Virus record (IMG/VR): IMGVR_UViG_2645727555_000025
Coordinates: 1-4,454 of that record
Strand: one strand, 5' to 3'
Source of the DNA: a virus
Lineage: Duplodnaviria > Heunggongvirae > Uroviricota > Caudoviricetes
Length of the DNA stretch: 4,454 nt
The translations under genes and the position numbers were made by a program. Positions within the stretch are counted from its first letter, which is position 1. Every line of letters starts with the position of its first letter. Positions 1 to 4,454 of the stretch are shown piece after piece. The notes beneath the pieces were generated by a model that did no database searches, was not told the origin of the DNA, and saw only the letters and a program-made list of their open reading frames with translations.

Positions 1-39
1 TTGACGGACTTCAGGGGAAAAACGAGTATTTTTAGTCAT
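1..39 (-). CDS. IS3-family transposase OrfA, N-terminal 13 codons only (partial, runs off window)
   Basis: ATG at complement 39..37 preceded by AAGAGGT; translation MTKNTRFSPEVRQ... matches the remembered N-terminus of IS629-type OrfA. Confidence 0.65.
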   Translation of the reverse strand, partial: MTKNTRFSPEVRQ

Positions 40-68
40 CCTGTTTACCTCTTTCTCAGGAAGTTTAG

Positions 69-93
69 TCTCCAGGATTCCCGGGGCGGTTCA
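69..93 (-). repeat. Terminal inverted repeat (IRL) of the IS3-family element
   Basis: Reverse complement of 69-93 is TGAACCGCCCCGGGAATCCTGGAGA, a 25-bp end beginning with the 5'-TG typical of IS3-family termini. Confidence 0.65.
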
Positions 94-124
94 AGCAGGT
101 GATTTCAGCTCCGCTTTAAATGAG

Positions 125-706
125 TTGGAGTTAGCTCATGAGCCTATAAACGTAATTAAGGCTGAAAGTGTTGAATCTGCCGAAAACGAGCCAGAACAAT
201 TGGGATTTATTGAGGTTGAAGAGTGTGTTGAGGTTAATGATGAATTAAAAGTTCAACAGTCAAATGATAGCAATACAAATAAAAAAGCTCGTACTGCAAG
301 AGGTCCTCGTTTTACTTTAAGTGATAAAGATGATTTGTTTTTCAATAAAGCAGGCTTAGAAAAAGATATTTTCTTAGACGCTTACGAAAACGCGCCTGTC
401 AAAGCAAAGGATAAGATATTAAACCTTCTTAATTGGTTTAGCGGAGGTCCAGATATTAGTGTTTACACGGTAATTTCCATGAGACACCTTCTCACAGAAA
501 AGAAGGCTACAAGTAATAGTATTAAGATTGCTTTAATGAGCAATCCAGAAAAACCGTATCCGCTTAACACTGCGTCAACTCAGGCTGGGCAAATGATGGC
601 TGTATTTCCAGCTACAGGAATTGCTGTTAGAGACGGTGGAAATCTAACATTGAACGAAGAATCACCGATCGTTAAGAAGTTTGTCGCGGAGTACACTATT
701 GGATGA
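125..706 (+). CDS. Hypothetical protein (193 codons from TTG), acidic N-terminal segment; probably the 3' portion of a gene interrupted by the IS insertion
   Basis: Frame is open from nt 5 to stop at 704-706 with no ATG/GTG before 479 and no convincing SD at TTG 125; the IS end lies at nt 93, so the native 5' end is likely displaced. No recognisable motif. Confidence 0.45.
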   Translation: MELAHEPINVIKAESVESAENEPEQLGFIEVEECVEVNDELKVQQSNDSNTNKKARTARGPRFTLSDKDDLFFNKAGLEKDIFLDAYENAPVKAKDKILNLLNWFSGGPDISVYTVISMRHLLTEKKATSNSIKIALMSNPEKPYPLNTASTQAGQMMAVFPATGIAVRDGGNLTLNEESPIVKKFVAEYTIG

Positions 707-746
707 CGTTCCCCTACTGAAAATAAAGCCCATAGAGAGCTTTATA

Positions 747-776
747 GTGCTGGGTAAGCTAACCCATACCCAGCAC
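747..776. other. Stem-loop (10-bp stem GTGCTGGGTA / TACCCAGCAC, 10-nt loop)
   Basis: Perfect inverted repeat 747-756 versus 767-776, read directly. Confidence 0.4.
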
Positions 777-780
777 CACA

Positions 781-828
781 AAAACGCGCCAGAGAGCTTC
801 TTGTTCGCATTTCTGGCGCGTTTTATTT
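781..828. terminator. Bidirectional rho-independent terminator
   Basis: 13-bp perfect stem AAAACGCGCCAGA (781-793) / TCTGGCGCGTTTT (812-824) with GC-rich core, A-tract on the 5' side and TTTTATTT on the 3' side; lies between the ORF at 125-706 and the methyltransferase gene. Confidence 0.6.
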
Positions 829-857
829 GATTGCCATACATAAAATCAAATGCAAAA

Positions 858-877
858 ATAGGTAATCACTTACCTAT
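858..877. promoter_or_regulatory. Inverted repeat ATAGGTAA-TCAC-TTACCTAT just upstream of the methyltransferase start; candidate operator or translation-initiation hairpin
   Basis: 8-bp arms at 858-865 and 870-877, 4-bp spacer, ending 11 nt before ATG 889 and adjacent to the purine-rich RBS region. Confidence 0.3.
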
Positions 878-888
878 CGAGAAAGAAG

Positions 889-1482
889 ATGATTGCAGCC
901 GAAAAAATCAAACAGCGAAAGCGCGACAACTCTCTTCGTGACCTCTGGAGAACACCTGATTGGCTGTTTTCTGCCATTCAACGTTATCTTGGAGTGACAT
1001 TTGATGTTGACGTTGCCTGCAACAAGGACAATGCAAAGCTGCCTATTTTCATAGGCGTTGAGCGCGATGCTTTGAAATCTGAATGGGGGCAGCCAGGTAC
1101 AATTGCCTTCCTCAATCCACCCTACTCCAAAATCTCCCCCTGGATTGATGCGGCTATACGTGAGCAGGCTCGCGGAGTTACAACAGTGATGCTAATTCCT
1201 CAATCCCTCGATACAAAGTGGTATGAGCGTGCAACAGAGTATGCGAATGAGACGATTATTCTGTCTGGTGGCCGCGTTGCGTTTGTCGAGCCTGACGTCA
1301 ATTTGGGTCAGGTAGAAGTAAACATCAACCCCGGTGGCAGTATGCTCGTTGTTTTTCGAGGGTTTTGTCAGGACGCTGGGCACTCTATAAGCAAGATCCC
1401 TTTGGACGTCATGAAAAGTCTGGGAGGGTATGATCCTGCGAATGTGATCAGGAAAAAAAGACCATCAAAGAAGGCTGCTTAG
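889..1482 (+). CDS. Phage-type DNA N6-adenine methyltransferase (Dam family, Pfam PF05869-like), orphan
   Basis: 197 aa; N-terminal WRTPDWLF motif and NPPYS catalytic motif (the D/N-P-P-Y/F motif IV of amino-methyltransferases); purine-rich stretch before ATG 889. Confidence 0.85.
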   Translation: MIAAEKIKQRKRDNSLRDLWRTPDWLFSAIQRYLGVTFDVDVACNKDNAKLPIFIGVERDALKSEWGQPGTIAFLNPPYSKISPWIDAAIREQARGVTTVMLIPQSLDTKWYERATEYANETIILSGGRVAFVEPDVNLGQVEVNINPGGSMLVVFRGFCQDAGHSISKIPLDVMKSLGGYDPANVIRKKRPSKKAA

Positions 1483-1503
1483 TTTGCTCTGGCGTCTGTA
1501 ATT

Positions 1504-1562
1504 AGCCTGCTTCTGTATATATAAATAACTACATATTAATTATTAATATACGGAAGCAGGCT
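1504..1562. repeat. GC-clamped inverted repeat (12-bp arms) enclosing a 35-nt AT-rich palindromic core; candidate terminator or operator/promoter element
   Basis: AGCCTGCTTCTG (1504-1515) pairs with CGGAAGCAGGCT (1551-1562), one G-U equivalent. Core contains the perfect 17-bp palindrome ATATTAAT-T-ATTAATAT (1533-1549). Lies 22 bp after the methyltransferase stop. Confidence 0.45.
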
Positions 1563-1668
1563 GTTTTGTATCAGAGACTCCCAGACCTGAACATCACTAC
1601 AGAATCCACTAGACCCCCTTCCCAGACGCTTTAAAATCGATTTTATGAACCACTTTAAGGAAACCAAC

Positions 1669-1899
1669 ATGTCATACCCGACTAATGTCGTTGCGCTCGT
1701 AGAGAGCGATTTTCTGGCCCAGGCTCGTGAAATGATGAAAGATCGTGAGCAGGCTTTCAACTTGTACGAGTGGGCAATTAAGTGCTTGCATCTTGGCGAG
1801 CATCGCGAACTTGTTGAACAGCTTTTAGGTGAGTTGATCAATGAGGTGTTTGCCTTGAATGTTCAACTACATGGTCGAGAAAATAATCAATCACAATGA
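1669..1899 (+). CDS. Hypothetical small protein (76 aa)
   Basis: ATG 1669 preceded by AAGGA (1657-1661) at 7-nt spacing, preferred over the ORF-track ATG at 1645 which has no SD. Acidic, helix-like composition; no recognised family. Confidence 0.55.
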   Translation: MSYPTNVVALVESDFLAQAREMMKDREQAFNLYEWAIKCLHLGEHRELVEQLLGELINEVFALNVQLHGRENNQSQ

Positions 1900-2319
1900 T
1901 AGATAAGTACAAACTATTCATAAAGTGAATTGTAAGTGCTAAGATCTGATAGTTTCCAGTCGTAGACTGGAGGCTCGACCTGATGGGTGGGGGTAAGCGT
2001 CACTGGCGTCAGGTTTAAAAAAGCTCACTACCAGCGTAGAACCGGTGCCGTATAGGTGTCGGGGAAGGGGGAACCAAAGTGAGCAGAGACAAGGGTCACT
2101 TTATGATTGTCGAGTCTGGGGTGTTTCGAGAGGTTGAATCCAGTACTCCCCTTCATAAAGTGTGGGAAGATCTCGGTTCTGGGGTGCTGTCATCCATAAC
2201 TTCCCAAGTCTAAGCTGGCAGTAGACTTAGACCATAGCTTTTCAGGTTATGAAACGACCAGGTTGGTGAGGAATTTTATACTCACCTCCCTGGGAGAGTA
2301 TTACCTGAAAAGACAACCT

Positions 2320-2357
2320 CTCACTTCGTTCGAGGTGAACTTCACTCACTTCGTTCG
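2320..2357. repeat. Two perfect 13-bp direct repeats CTCACTTCGTTCG (2320-2332 and 2345-2357) flanking the small palindrome GTGAAC-TTCAC
   Basis: Read directly; about 125 bp upstream of the RNase H start codon. Confidence 0.6.
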
Positions 2358-2418
2358 TTCAGTTCAGGTTTATAAAAACCTGTTCTGGGAAGTAATTTGT
2401 TTATTTTAATAATTATTA

Positions 2419-2443
2419 ACACGCACGCGTGTGCGCACGCGCG
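2419..2443. promoter_or_regulatory. 25-nt perfectly alternating purine-pyrimidine tract (ACACGCACGCGTGTGCGCACGCGCG) with nested palindromes, in the RNase H promoter/5' UTR
   Basis: Strict Pu/Py alternation across 2419-2443; palindromes CACGCGTG (2424-2431) and GTGCGCAC (2431-2438); preceded by an AT-rich stretch (2393-2418) and followed by SD AGGAG (2471-2475). Confidence 0.5.
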
Positions 2444-2480
2444 AGGAAAAATCGGCGCGGCGCTTGATTCAGGAGTTTAT

Positions 2481-3071
2481 ATGACGACGAAGACACCAGC
2501 CCGATCGCAAGCAAAAACTCGCAAAAAAGACAAAAACAAAAATTCTCCCCGCACCAATCCCACAACGCCTGTCGTAGAGTTCAATCCCCAGCTTAAAACC
2601 GTGAAAATCTTTAGTGATGGCTCTTGCCTTAAAAATCCGGGTGGCCCGGGCGGTTACGGTATCGTTCTCCAGTATCGTGGTGAGGAACGCGAGTTCTCAG
2701 ATGGTTTTCATAGCACCACCAATAACCGCATGGAGATGATGGGGGCACTTATCGGGCTGGAGCGTTTGAAATATCCATGCAACGTTATTTTGCACTCTGA
2801 TAGCCAGTATCTGAAAAACGGCATGACACAGTGGATGAAATGGTGGAAACGCAATGGATGGATGACTTCTGACAAAAAACCGGTAAAGAATGTTGATCTG
2901 TGGAAGCGTCTGGATGAGGCCGCAAGTCGACATAATGTTCGCTGGAAGTGGGTTAAAGGTCACGCCGGGCATCGTGAAAATGAAATATGTGATCGACTCG
3001 CGAAGATCGCAGCTTTTTCAGCAGCAGATATGCCTCACAAGAAAGATATTGGTTTTGTTTATAACAAATAG
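2481..3071 (+). CDS. Ribonuclease HI homolog (RNase H type 1 fold) with a ~40-aa basic, low-complexity N-terminal extension
   Basis: 196 aa. From residue ~40 it aligns with E. coli RNase HI as I remember it: catalytic D (IFSDGSC), E (NNRMEMM), D (HSDSQY), H (KGHAGH), D (ICDRLA) and the GYG motif are all present. N-terminal 40 residues rich in K/R/T/P. Strong SD AGGAG 5 nt before ATG 2481, preferred over the ORF-track TTG at 2397. Confidence 0.85.
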
Positions 3072-3168
3072 TAAGTAAGTGTTTACCTATCATTTTAAAT
3101 CATGTATCTTATCGGCGTCAGGATGACAATGTGTCGGTAAGACACAGTTCCAGGATGGAACGAGAAAG

Positions 3169-3190
3169 GCGGCTGGCAATCGCCAGCCGC
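3169..3190 (+). terminator. GC-rich hairpin (9-bp stem, 4-nt loop), possible terminator/attenuator after the RNase H gene
   Basis: GCGGCTGGC-AATC-GCCAGCCGC followed by AACTCTTTCT, a weak U-tract. Confidence 0.4.
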
Positions 3191-3219
3191 AACTCTTTCT
3201 GACACTGGATGGAGTCCAC

Positions 3220-3714
3220 ATGGCACGTCAAACCTATTTCACTTCTGTAACTAAACGTCCTCGTTCTTTACGTCAAATTTTGGCCGAATTATTTAGCGGT
3301 CGTGTTATGTCACGTCTTGATGAACTAGAGACTACCGTTCGGTTGCTGAATGAACGTTTAGATAATCAAGCGTCAGTTGTTGCGAACGTGGGGGCGATTG
3401 TTGCCTCTGGTTCTTCACGCGAAGCGAAAAATGCACGGCCTTTAGTGAAGGAGAAAAACAACAAGGACAGTTCGAATGGAAAATTTTCAAAGAAAGAGGC
3501 TGAAACCAATGGCCTACGTTCTCATTATAGTTTCACTGGCGACGGTAGCCGTTCCAGCCGGTCAGAGCCTTTTGATGCCGGATTCATCCATCACCACACC
3601 TTCGTCGACGACAATTACCACCACTCCAGTGGAGCGTCCTGTCACTCTGGATGGGATGGCGGTGGATGCGATACCTCAAGTTCATCCAGTTACTCAGGAT
3701 CATGCTGTGACTAA
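3220..3714 (+). CDS. Hypothetical protein, predicted coiled-coil N-terminal half; C-terminal third is low-complexity (His/Ser/Cys/Gly) and may not be translated as drawn
   Basis: ATG 3220 with GGAG (3211-3214) at 5-nt spacing; first ~85 codons look like genuine coding sequence (amphipathic LDELETTVRLLNERLDN). From ~3480 the +1 frame looks more gene-like than this frame. Confidence 0.4.
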   Translation: MARQTYFTSVTKRPRSLRQILAELFSGRVMSRLDELETTVRLLNERLDNQASVVANVGAIVASGSSREAKNARPLVKEKNNKDSSNGKFSKKEAETNGLRSHYSFTGDGSRSSRSEPFDAGFIHHHTFVDDNYHHSSGASCHSGWDGGGCDTSSSSSYSGSCCD

Positions 3715-3727
3715 GGCGGTTGTATGA
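3476..3727 (+). CDS. Small secreted or membrane-anchored Thr/Pro-rich protein (83 aa) with N-terminal signal-peptide-like segment
   Basis: ATG 3476 preceded by AAGGA (3463-3467); basic n-region MENFQRKRLKP, hydrophobic h-region MAYVLIIVSLATVAV, then PAGQS and a T/S/P-rich region; codon choice looks typical for enterobacterial genes; stop TGA overlaps the next ATG. Confidence 0.5.
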   Translation: MENFQRKRLKPMAYVLIIVSLATVAVPAGQSLLMPDSSITTPSSTTITTTPVERPVTLDGMAVDAIPQVHPVTQDHAVTKAVV

Positions 3728-3912
3728 ACTGGTTTTCAAATCACTTTGGAAAAATTTGGCTGGCAATTCTTGCCCTCATGGCCGCCGGTTGGGTATCGAA
3801 CATTATAAAACTTGTTTGCTCTGGCGATCTCCAGTTTCAGGCTGGCATGACCTTGGCTCGTGTAGTTGGGATTTTTATTTTTCCAGTCGGTTCGGTACTT
3901 GGTTATTTCTGA
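3724..3912 (+). CDS. Small membrane protein (62 aa, two predicted transmembrane helices)
   Basis: ATG 3724 overlaps the upstream stop (ATGA), SD-like AAGGCGG upstream; hydrophobic segments IWLAILALMAAGWV and LARVVGIFIFPVGSVLGYF. Preferred over the W/C-rich ORF at 3720-3950 in another frame. Confidence 0.5.
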   Translation: MNWFSNHFGKIWLAILALMAAGWVSNIIKLVCSGDLQFQAGMTLARVVGIFIFPVGSVLGYF

Positions 3913-3944
3913 CGGTTGTTAGTGCATATGCATTGACCGTCTTT
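3911..3944 (+). terminator. Hairpin (GACGGT / ACCGTC stem around the palindrome TGCATATGCA) followed by CTTT; possible terminator
   Basis: Arms 3911-3916 and 3936-3941; inner palindrome 3923-3932; short T-run 3942-3944. Confidence 0.35.
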
Positions 3945-4005
3945 GCGTAAGCAATTTATTTAACTAGAAAACAACTTGTTTTGACAAATAACAAAAGGAA
4001 AACAC

Positions 4006-4416
4006 ATGTTAGGTTTCTTCAAAAAGAAAACTCGTAAAGCAGTTATCGAAGTCAAAAAAATGGAGAACCGTGATGCGGTTGAGGCCACCGTGTGGGGCGC
4101 GTACATGATCTCCTATGCCGACGGCACATGTGACGCAAAAGAAATTGCCATTCTTGAGAAGACAATTGCAGCTCTGCCTGCGTTTTCTCCGTTTGCTGGT
4201 GAAATTGCCCAAATGAGCGCCAATATCCGTGCTCGTTACGAAGCGTCCCCTCGTTCTGCTAATGCACAGGCTATTCGTGAGCTGTCTGATATTGCTGGTA
4301 CTCCAGAGGCGGTCGATGTTCTGTGTCTGTGCCTTGATATTGCCGATCAGGATGGCATTGGTCGAGTAGGCAGCCTGACGGCTGCGGCTTGTCATGGTCT
4401 GCAATTACCGTTATAA
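4006..4416 (+). CDS. TerB-fold (tellurite-resistance TerB-like) protein, 136 aa
   Basis: SD AAGGA (3995-3999) 6 nt before ATG 4006. N-terminus M-x-x-FF-K and two A-D-G-containing helical segments (YADGTCDAKEIAILEKTI; DIADQDGIGRVGSL) resemble the paired ADG motifs of TerB as I remember them. Confidence 0.7.
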   Translation: MLGFFKKKTRKAVIEVKKMENRDAVEATVWGAYMISYADGTCDAKEIAILEKTIAALPAFSPFAGEIAQMSANIRARYEASPRSANAQAIRELSDIAGTPEAVDVLCLCLDIADQDGIGRVGSLTAAACHGLQLPL

Positions 4417-4454
4417 AAACAGGCAATGTCATTGTCTTTCAGGTGGTTATATGG

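Follow-up and report, generated by a model that had tools for sequence, protein, structure and literature searches.

An IS629 end truncates a phrog_5235 gene on an Escherichia coli contig of probable SSU5-like phage-plasmid origin

The stretch of DNA analyzed here (the window, 4454 bp) is the whole of contig DF970312.1 from the draft assembly GCA_001297725.1, as established by looking up two ORFs specific to its junctions as exact matches, which occur on no other contig of the collection. Its interior holds, from left to right, what is left of a phrog_5235 gene, a Dam-type methyltransferase gene, a small ORF, an RNase HI gene, two further small ORFs and the 5' part of a TerB-like gene, and this block is bounded on the left by the end of one insertion sequence and on the right by the end of another (Table 1).

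Table 1 Features of the window, with coordinates in nucleotides and the basis on which each was assigned
Feature	Position	Strand	Basis
IS629 left end (IS3 family)	1..93	-	93/93 identity to 1310-bp copies
IRL, 25-bp imperfect terminal inverted repeat, TGAACCGCCCCGGGAATCCTGGAGA	93 to 69	-	read from window
IS629 leader with AAGAGG	53-48	-	AAGAGG 8 nt before ATG at 39-37
orfA, first 13 codons, MTKNTRFSPEVRQ	39-1	-	translation
Predicted target-site duplication copy, AGC (3 bp) or AGCA (4 bp)	94-96/97	.	inferred from junction position and IS629 literature
3' remnant of interrupted gene, nt 198-810 of 810-nt CDS	94..706	+	gapless alignment to pAVS0225-A (L001)
Public gene call, TTG start, 193 aa	125..706	+	made on truncated gene
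Terminator-like hairpin and U-run downstream of interrupted gene	781..826	+	-26.6 kcal/mol, z = -5.1, 0/200 shuffles fold as well
TerB-like gene, 5' part (141 codons if intact)	4006..4361	+	Pfam TerB, phrog_632 (intact protein)
Left (terIS-side) end of IS91-family ISEc37-like element, orf121-like start codon at 4451	4362..4454	+	92-95/95, 236 records

The element at the left end of the window was identified by comparison with complete copies elsewhere. A first-pass annotation, made from the letters of the sequence, had read the minus strand of 1-93 as an IS629-like left end of the IS3 family, opening with TG and followed by a Shine-Dalgarno sequence and an ATG, and all of this is borne out: the 93 nucleotides agree at 93 of 93 positions with annotated IS629 copies, the reverse complement opens with TGAACCGCCCCGGG (at greater length TGAACCGCCCCGGGAATCCTGGAGACTAAACTTCCTGAGAAAGAGGTAAACAGGATGACTAAAAAT...), its first bases being TG, and AAGAGG lies 8 nt upstream of the ATG at 39-37. 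Among complete E. coli records, 5741 matched the 93-nt end (5710 with at least 80% query coverage), with best matches of 93/93 (E = 2e-40) and up to 50 sites per genome, a similarity to IS629 copies far beyond chance. One of these matches, at 2001-2093 of the extracted locus L002, opens a full 1310-bp copy (2001-3310) that runs from TGAACCGCCCCGGG to CCCGGGGCGGTTCA inside a gene of the ynf operon, with a 4-bp duplication, CACT, on both flanks. The left and right terminal repeats (IRL and IRR) of this copy agree at 23 of 25 positions. It is annotated as an IS3-family transposase that involves programmed frameshifting, and the protein encoded by its orfA has a match to Pfam HTH_Tnp_1. Because a 100%-identical 1310-bp copy in LC567824.1 is annotated as 'insertion sequence: IS3 family IS629', with IS629 OrfA and OrfB, the element at window 1-93 is IS629.

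With IS629 the window end has in common termini of the TG...CA type, imperfect inverted repeats of 25 bp and an orfA that begins MTKNTRFSPEVRQ, and the visible 93 nt show no differences from it; full copies further carry orfA and orfB with a programmed frameshift and are flanked by 3-4 bp duplications, whereas the window holds the first 93 nt only. IS629 produces its DDE transposase, OrfAB, by programmed -1 frameshifting, and members of the IS3 family move by a copy-out/paste-in route through a circular intermediate. Isoforms of IS629 include IS1203 and IS3411, its sub-types lie 4-5% apart, and its target duplication measures 3-4 bp (Rump et al., PMC3271280).

On the other side of the IS terminus the window continues inside a gene. 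The intact form of this gene is found at 4805-5614 of the extracted locus L001 from plasmid pAVS0225-A (NZ_CP124493.1), where it comprises 810 nt and 269 codons, encodes WP_021512352.1 ('hypothetical protein') and has the same frame as 125-706. The IS terminus stands after nucleotide 197 of the gene, cutting off the first 66 codons, and the 613-nt remnant (94-706) starts with the final base of codon 66 and runs through codons 67-269 to the stop, with gene nucleotides 1-197 absent. Where the intact site reads ...TTCAATGAAGAAAAAGCAGGTGATTTCAGC, the window reads ...GGCGGTTCA|AGCAGGTGATTTCAGC. Alignments to intact plasmids begin at 93 because the A at that position happens to agree with the target base; if the IS is taken to end at its canonical terminus, window 93, the target picks up again at 94, which is gene nucleotide 198. 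The retained 203 residues are identical to those of the intact protein, and in 204 complete E. coli records that span 93-900, with ~110-kb plasmids among those listed, the sequence carries on upstream without interruption. These uninterrupted records, together with the same-frame CDS of pAVS0225-A, support the earlier proposal that the 125-706 frame is a gene split by an insertion, and we regard it as close to certain that an IS629 end truncates a phrog_5235 gene in the window.

The intact protein matches phrog_5235 over the entire profile (positions 1-274 of 274), a family whose function PHROG gives as unknown, and a Pfam profile search found no domain in it. We collected 57 relatives of the retained 203 residues, of which the full-length ones measure 248-295 aa and lie mostly on 100-120 kb contigs from Escherichia, Salmonella, Enterobacter, Klebsiella, Cronobacter, Citrobacter and Buttiauxella. 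In their alignment, LDELTAMLQSLDEP and IDDLL-GLD are conserved family-wide in the N-terminal segment; the window copy is a truncated family member that has lost both. An AlphaFold2 model of a 96%-identical full-length member has helical segments near the N-terminus, modeled with low to moderate confidence, then an acidic linker at 84-132 that is disordered, and a confident C-terminal domain at ~135-269 (pLDDT >90). A Foldseek search of this model against the PDB returned nothing significant (best E = 0.15); the weak matches were mostly winged-helix DNA-binding proteins, offering a hint only that the modeled C-terminal domain may be weakly winged-helix-like.

How the remnant came to carry a public gene call can be read from its frame, which stays open between nucleotide 5 and its stop codon (704-706). 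The earliest in-frame ATG, GTG or TTG is the TTG at 125, and the first in-frame ATG comes only at nucleotide 480. The first-pass annotation had described an open frame immediately beyond the IS terminus with neither ATG nor GTG. No such codon indeed precedes 125, to which we add that TTG 125 serves as the formal start; the frame is open as described, but nucleotides 94-124 are already part of the interrupted gene and not a spacer ahead of it. We considered whether 125-706 might be a genuine shorter gene, independently expressed from TTG 125, given that the ORF is called in the public record and keeps whole the conserved, confidently folded C-terminal domain (~135-269). This is exceedingly improbable: all close full-length homologues have TTG 125 as an internal Leu codon, neither a suitably spaced Shine-Dalgarno-like sequence nor a promoter-like site precedes it, the members of phrog_5235 run to 248-295 aa with a conserved N-terminus, and transcription of the adjacent IS629 runs opposite to 125-706. 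We therefore reject the call as an artefact, TTG 125 being an internal Leu codon in intact homologues.

A consensus scan of 1-124 likewise found no sigma-70-like site on the + strand. Since promoter, ribosome binding site, start codon and conserved N-terminal segment have all been lost, 94-706 is probably a dead pseudogene fragment that is no longer expressed, and because the transposase genes of IS629 are directed to the left and away from it, no part of the IS drives the remnant. Downstream, the terminator-like hairpin at 781-826 marks the interrupted gene as the last of its transcription unit, and a promoter-like site follows at 831-859, ahead of the Dam-type methyltransferase gene. A polar effect on the methyltransferase gene is thus unlikely; it should be unaffected, as the interrupted gene has its own terminator. 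The same gene is also frameshifted on otherwise complete 108-112-kb E. coli plasmids (P0072, P0073, P0074 and P0084-P0086, the fusion included), and one homologue is fused to unrelated foreign sequence after residue 60. Its inactivation in these other E. coli phage-plasmids suggests that the phrog_5235 gene is dispensable for plasmid maintenance.

Apart from the two insertion-sequence ends, the window is collinear with a known group of replicons. Window 93-4362 corresponds to 5001-9270 of the pAVS0225-A locus at 99.906% identity (4 mismatches in 4270 nt, no gaps), and outside the IS ends identity is 97.5-98.3% with Escherichia phages CMS-2020a, Cyrano and PhiR41_1 and 78.5% with Salmonella phage SSU5. 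Judged by this similarity, the backbone is in all likelihood that of an SSU5-like phage-plasmid of E. coli. Relatives of the SSU5 / pHCM2 type (Cyrano, CMS-2020a, PhiR41_1, pAVS0225-A and pECOH89) are collinear with window 94-4361 at 97.5-99.9% and share with it the gene order given above, from the phrog_5235 gene to the TerB-like gene; the window differs from them in that two of these genes are interrupted by insertion sequences. Upstream of the corresponding region in pAVS0225-A (2476-2952 of the locus) lies a nucleotide-metabolism cluster, including thymidylate synthase and the trimethoprim-resistant DHFR DfrA51, which the interrupted gene closes; if the source plasmid is otherwise intact, this DfrA51/thymidylate synthase cluster would lie just past the IS629 copy.

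Plasmids of the SSU5 group are often distinguished by IS gain or loss alone (bioRxiv 10.1101/2025.09.12.675607), and the SSU5-like plasmid pRM9975-1 (NZ_CP028433.1) offers a direct comparison, with at least five IS629/IS1203 copies in its first 50 kb, some of them gene-interrupting. Clean 3-bp duplications (GTG, AAG and ATT) flank three of the five copies; at the other two, the flanks agree over 2 bp, with an ambiguous terminal T in addition. These copies belong to the IS1203 subtype, are 96.1% identical to the subtype in the window and occupy other positions; in the pRM9975-1 homologue of the gene interrupted here, the match runs straight across the breakpoint.

The right end of the window carries a second insertion, of a different family. 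Its 4362-4454 end was found in 236 matching E. coli records, mostly plasmids, with up to 8 sites per genome, and belongs to an element of ~1.83 kb with an orf121-like gene and an IS91-family transposase gene; the name ISEc37 is taken from the PGAP label 'IS91-like element ISEc37 family' on one copy. The terminus, TCGAGTAGG / TCGAGTAGGCAGCC, is the same in five independent contexts. At the other end, tallied from eight copies on one ETEC-type plasmid together with the copy in L016, what comes after ...TTCCTATCGA is TCAAG in three cases, TGAAC in three (L016 included), TGTAC in one and otherwise the next tandem copy, and no target duplication was found at these IS91-like copies. In the intact plasmid, the breakpoint reads GCATTGG|TGAACAAG (GCATTGG|TGAAC), placing the IS just 5' of GAAC; CAAG or GAAC would fall at a fixed position by chance in about 2/256 of cases. 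The 136-aa ORF at 4006-4416 is a fusion of the TerB-like gene that reads into the IS, and it is unique to DF970312.1.

IS91 is described as inserting without duplication, with a specific tetranucleotide, written 5'-CTTG/GTTC, abutting the oriIS end (PMC13181058). Read in the orf121-to-tnpA direction, the ISEc37-like copies are flanked by CAAG/GAAC, which is the complement of 5'-CTTG/GTTC as given in PMC13181058. We considered and rejected a breach of the 5'-CTTG/GTTC rule at this junction, as real copies read CAAG/GAAC and the junction is canonical. The window end thus resembles IS91 / ISEc37, elements with a rolling-circle HUH transposase, in its left terminus, its orf121-like start, its lack of a duplication and its seat 5' of GAAC; full ISEc37-like copies extend to ~1.83 kb, compared with the 93 nt present in the window, and the oriIS side falls outside it. 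Because the element is seated exactly 5' of the family's target tetranucleotide, the right junction is a primary, canonical insertion into the TerB-like gene of an intact plasmid rather than a scrambled remnant, and on the far side of the element we would expect ...TTCCTATCGA followed by TGAACAAGAAGAGCAGG. Separately, at L018 3867-9351 (NZ_JBYTPC010000003.1) we observed three IS91-like copies abutting head-to-tail (...CCTATCGA|TCGAGTAGG...), an arrangement that is expected when rolling-circle transposition fails to terminate; the ETEC-type plasmid of L018 has eight IS91-like copies in all, along with three IS629-like copies.

Both ends of the contig extend exactly 93 nt into a repeat (1-93 and 4362-4454), and this equal extension marks them as assembly breaks with the signature of a de Bruijn graph. 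Because both ends reach precisely this far into repeat sequence, IS629 and the IS91-like element are each implied to be multicopy in the source genome. The same feature bears on whether the left junction could be an assembly product, with the assembler having joined an IS629 end to the phage-plasmid, or with only a minority of copies carrying the insertion, and the gene intact in the cell. The assembly is a short-read draft, and where both ends stop, exactly 93 nt inside repeats, was dictated by the assembly graph. A fixed k-mer extension into the flanking repeat is, however, normal at a genuine boundary between unique and repeated sequence; a false join by k-mers would need more overlap than the one base at most (the A at 93) that IS and target share; the position of the break is exactly that of the canonical IS629 terminus; and the other contig end independently behaves likewise, with a family-specific target site. 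We accordingly consider an artefactual junction very improbable.

Taking the junction as real, we favor a simple insertion with a duplication of AGC or AGCA, to which we assign a probability of roughly 70%. The first-pass annotation had likewise expected a 3-4 bp duplication at the other junction, followed by the 5' part of the gene. An IS629 copy would have entered codon 66 of the 269-codon gene on an SSU5-like phage-plasmid in E. coli, presumably by copy-out/paste-in via a circular intermediate, as is general in the IS3 family. The opposite end of IS629 would then adjoin, on another contig of the same draft assembly, the gene's initial 200-201 nt, which would end in AGC or AGCA, so that ...GAAGAAAAAGC(A) would be joined to TGAACCGCCCCGGGTTTCC, and the predicted far junction would have TGAACCGCCCCGGGTTTCCTGGAGAG preceded by ...TTCAATGAAGAAAAAGC or ...AAAAAGCA, and the 3'-5' exonuclease, AAA-ATPase and DHFR genes would be expected in line beyond it. 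Several observations favor this reading: the breakpoint coincides with the IS terminus to the base, the 4.27-kb flank is collinear with intact plasmids and almost undiverged from them, the second IS junction is a primary insertion into an intact target, and all five IS629/IS1203 copies in the first 50 kb of pRM9975-1 look simple. With all 203 retained residues identical and just 4 mismatches in 4270 nt, the insertion is also recent.

The principal alternative, which we consider unlikely though far from negligible, is that the junction is real but that recombination between IS629 copies, an IS629-mediated adjacent deletion or an IS-excision-type event has since deleted the gene's 5' part or moved it elsewhere. 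In that case the 4.27-kb block may be what remains of a phage-plasmid between IS elements, possibly within another replicon such as an IS-rich virulence plasmid. Matching duplications were reported for 21 of 47 IS629 copies in four O157 genomes (PMC3271280), meaning that fewer than half of those copies keep them; in addition, two different IS ends bound the block, and the IS91-like element occurs mainly on IS-rich plasmids of the ETEC/EPEC type that also carry IS629-like copies. Against such a history, the 4.27 kb follow intact plasmids in perfect collinearity and have hardly diverged from them, the IS91-type junction bears the signature of a primary insertion into an intact target, and a complete plasmid of the same family (pRM9975-1) has simple IS629 insertions.

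A further point bearing on these two readings concerns the other side of the insertion, for which we predicted the protein products of the sister junction (16 sequences, spanning duplications of 0-5 bp and four N-terminal variants) and searched for them by exact look-up. The expected product is a 67-aa protein ending NEEKA for a 4-bp duplication, or a 79-aa protein ending ...AEPPRVSWRVFYL for a 3-bp one. None of the 16 was present in a collection of 15 billion proteins, except for a 66-aa partial ending '...NEEK', and this collection includes the gene calls of GCA_001297725.1, genes of 62 and 76 aa among them. Their absence from a collection that holds the assembly's own genes speaks for a rearrangement and counts against a simple insertion, but a predicted short protein missing from a database is weak evidence.

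Nucleotide searches returned the following. A megablast search with window 1-260 found no junction-spanning record among complete E. coli genomes and PLSDB, an exact pattern for the near junction was absent from GTDB representatives and IMG/VR, and neither IMG/VR nor JGI metagenomes yielded the sequence predicted at the far junction for a duplication of 3 or 4 bp, AATGAAGAAAAAGC(N)TGAACCGCCCCGGG. With the N-terminal 67 aa as query, a homology search recovered frameshift variants and one foreign fusion and no IS629-tailed homologue, and a literature search on GCA_001297725.1 found no mention of the assembly.

The 66-aa NEEK partial was considered as a trace of the insertion and rejected, since its sources are seven unrelated contigs, each of them ending at GAAGAAAAA(G)(C) with no IS bases. 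Its cluster holds other partials of 62-113 aa, and a search for 3' partials matching it found none. The seven contig ends, from independent isolates as well as metagenomes (L010-L014 among them), lie 198-200 nt into the gene, at the IS629 target site, and one of them (L011) ends at the predicted 3-bp duplication AGC. The likely cause of these stops is a polymorphic gene at which assemblies break; conceivably, the A5 run is instead a hot spot for insertion.

The nature of the right-hand element raises one further scenario. By one-ended rolling-circle transposition, elements of the IS91 type carry along the DNA next to their terIS end, and because the 4.27-kb block abuts a terIS end, it could have left its phage-plasmid and be DNA in transit to another replicon, for example an IS-rich virulence plasmid. 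That the block, with its Dam-type methyltransferase, RNase HI and small ORFs, is cargo caught between IS629 and the IS91-family element strikes us as distinctly improbable.

Returning to the simple insertion favored here, its components (IS629, the IS91-family element and SSU5-like phage-plasmids) are all well-described classes, and an event of this kind is already known and ordinary. This particular IS629 site was not found in the complete genomes, plasmids, phage records or metagenomes searched, a uniqueness that is trivial for a mobile element with a weak target preference. With the window there is one more case of E. coli phage-plasmids of the SSU5-like group being eroded by IS629 and IS91-type elements, which fits both published remarks on IS gain and loss among SSU5-group plasmids (bioRxiv 10.1101/2025.09.12.675607) and the use of IS629 positions as strain markers. 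For annotation, the calls at 125-706 and 4006-4416 deserve flags as pseudogene fragments or fusions, not as proteins, and for the uncharacterised phrog_5235 protein, its apparent dispensability and its possible weak winged-helix likeness together provide a hint for study.

Rfam, tRNA, repeat and fold checks gave nothing notable in the rest of the window. Between a 76-codon ORF and rnhA lies a gene-free region of ~580 nt (1900-2480), which is unannotated in the intact plasmid too; it has no Rfam or tRNA match, and its fold z is modest (-2.1 for 1930-2230). We also observed a GC-rich palindromic run, ACGCACGCGTGTGCGCACGCGCG, at about 2421-2443.
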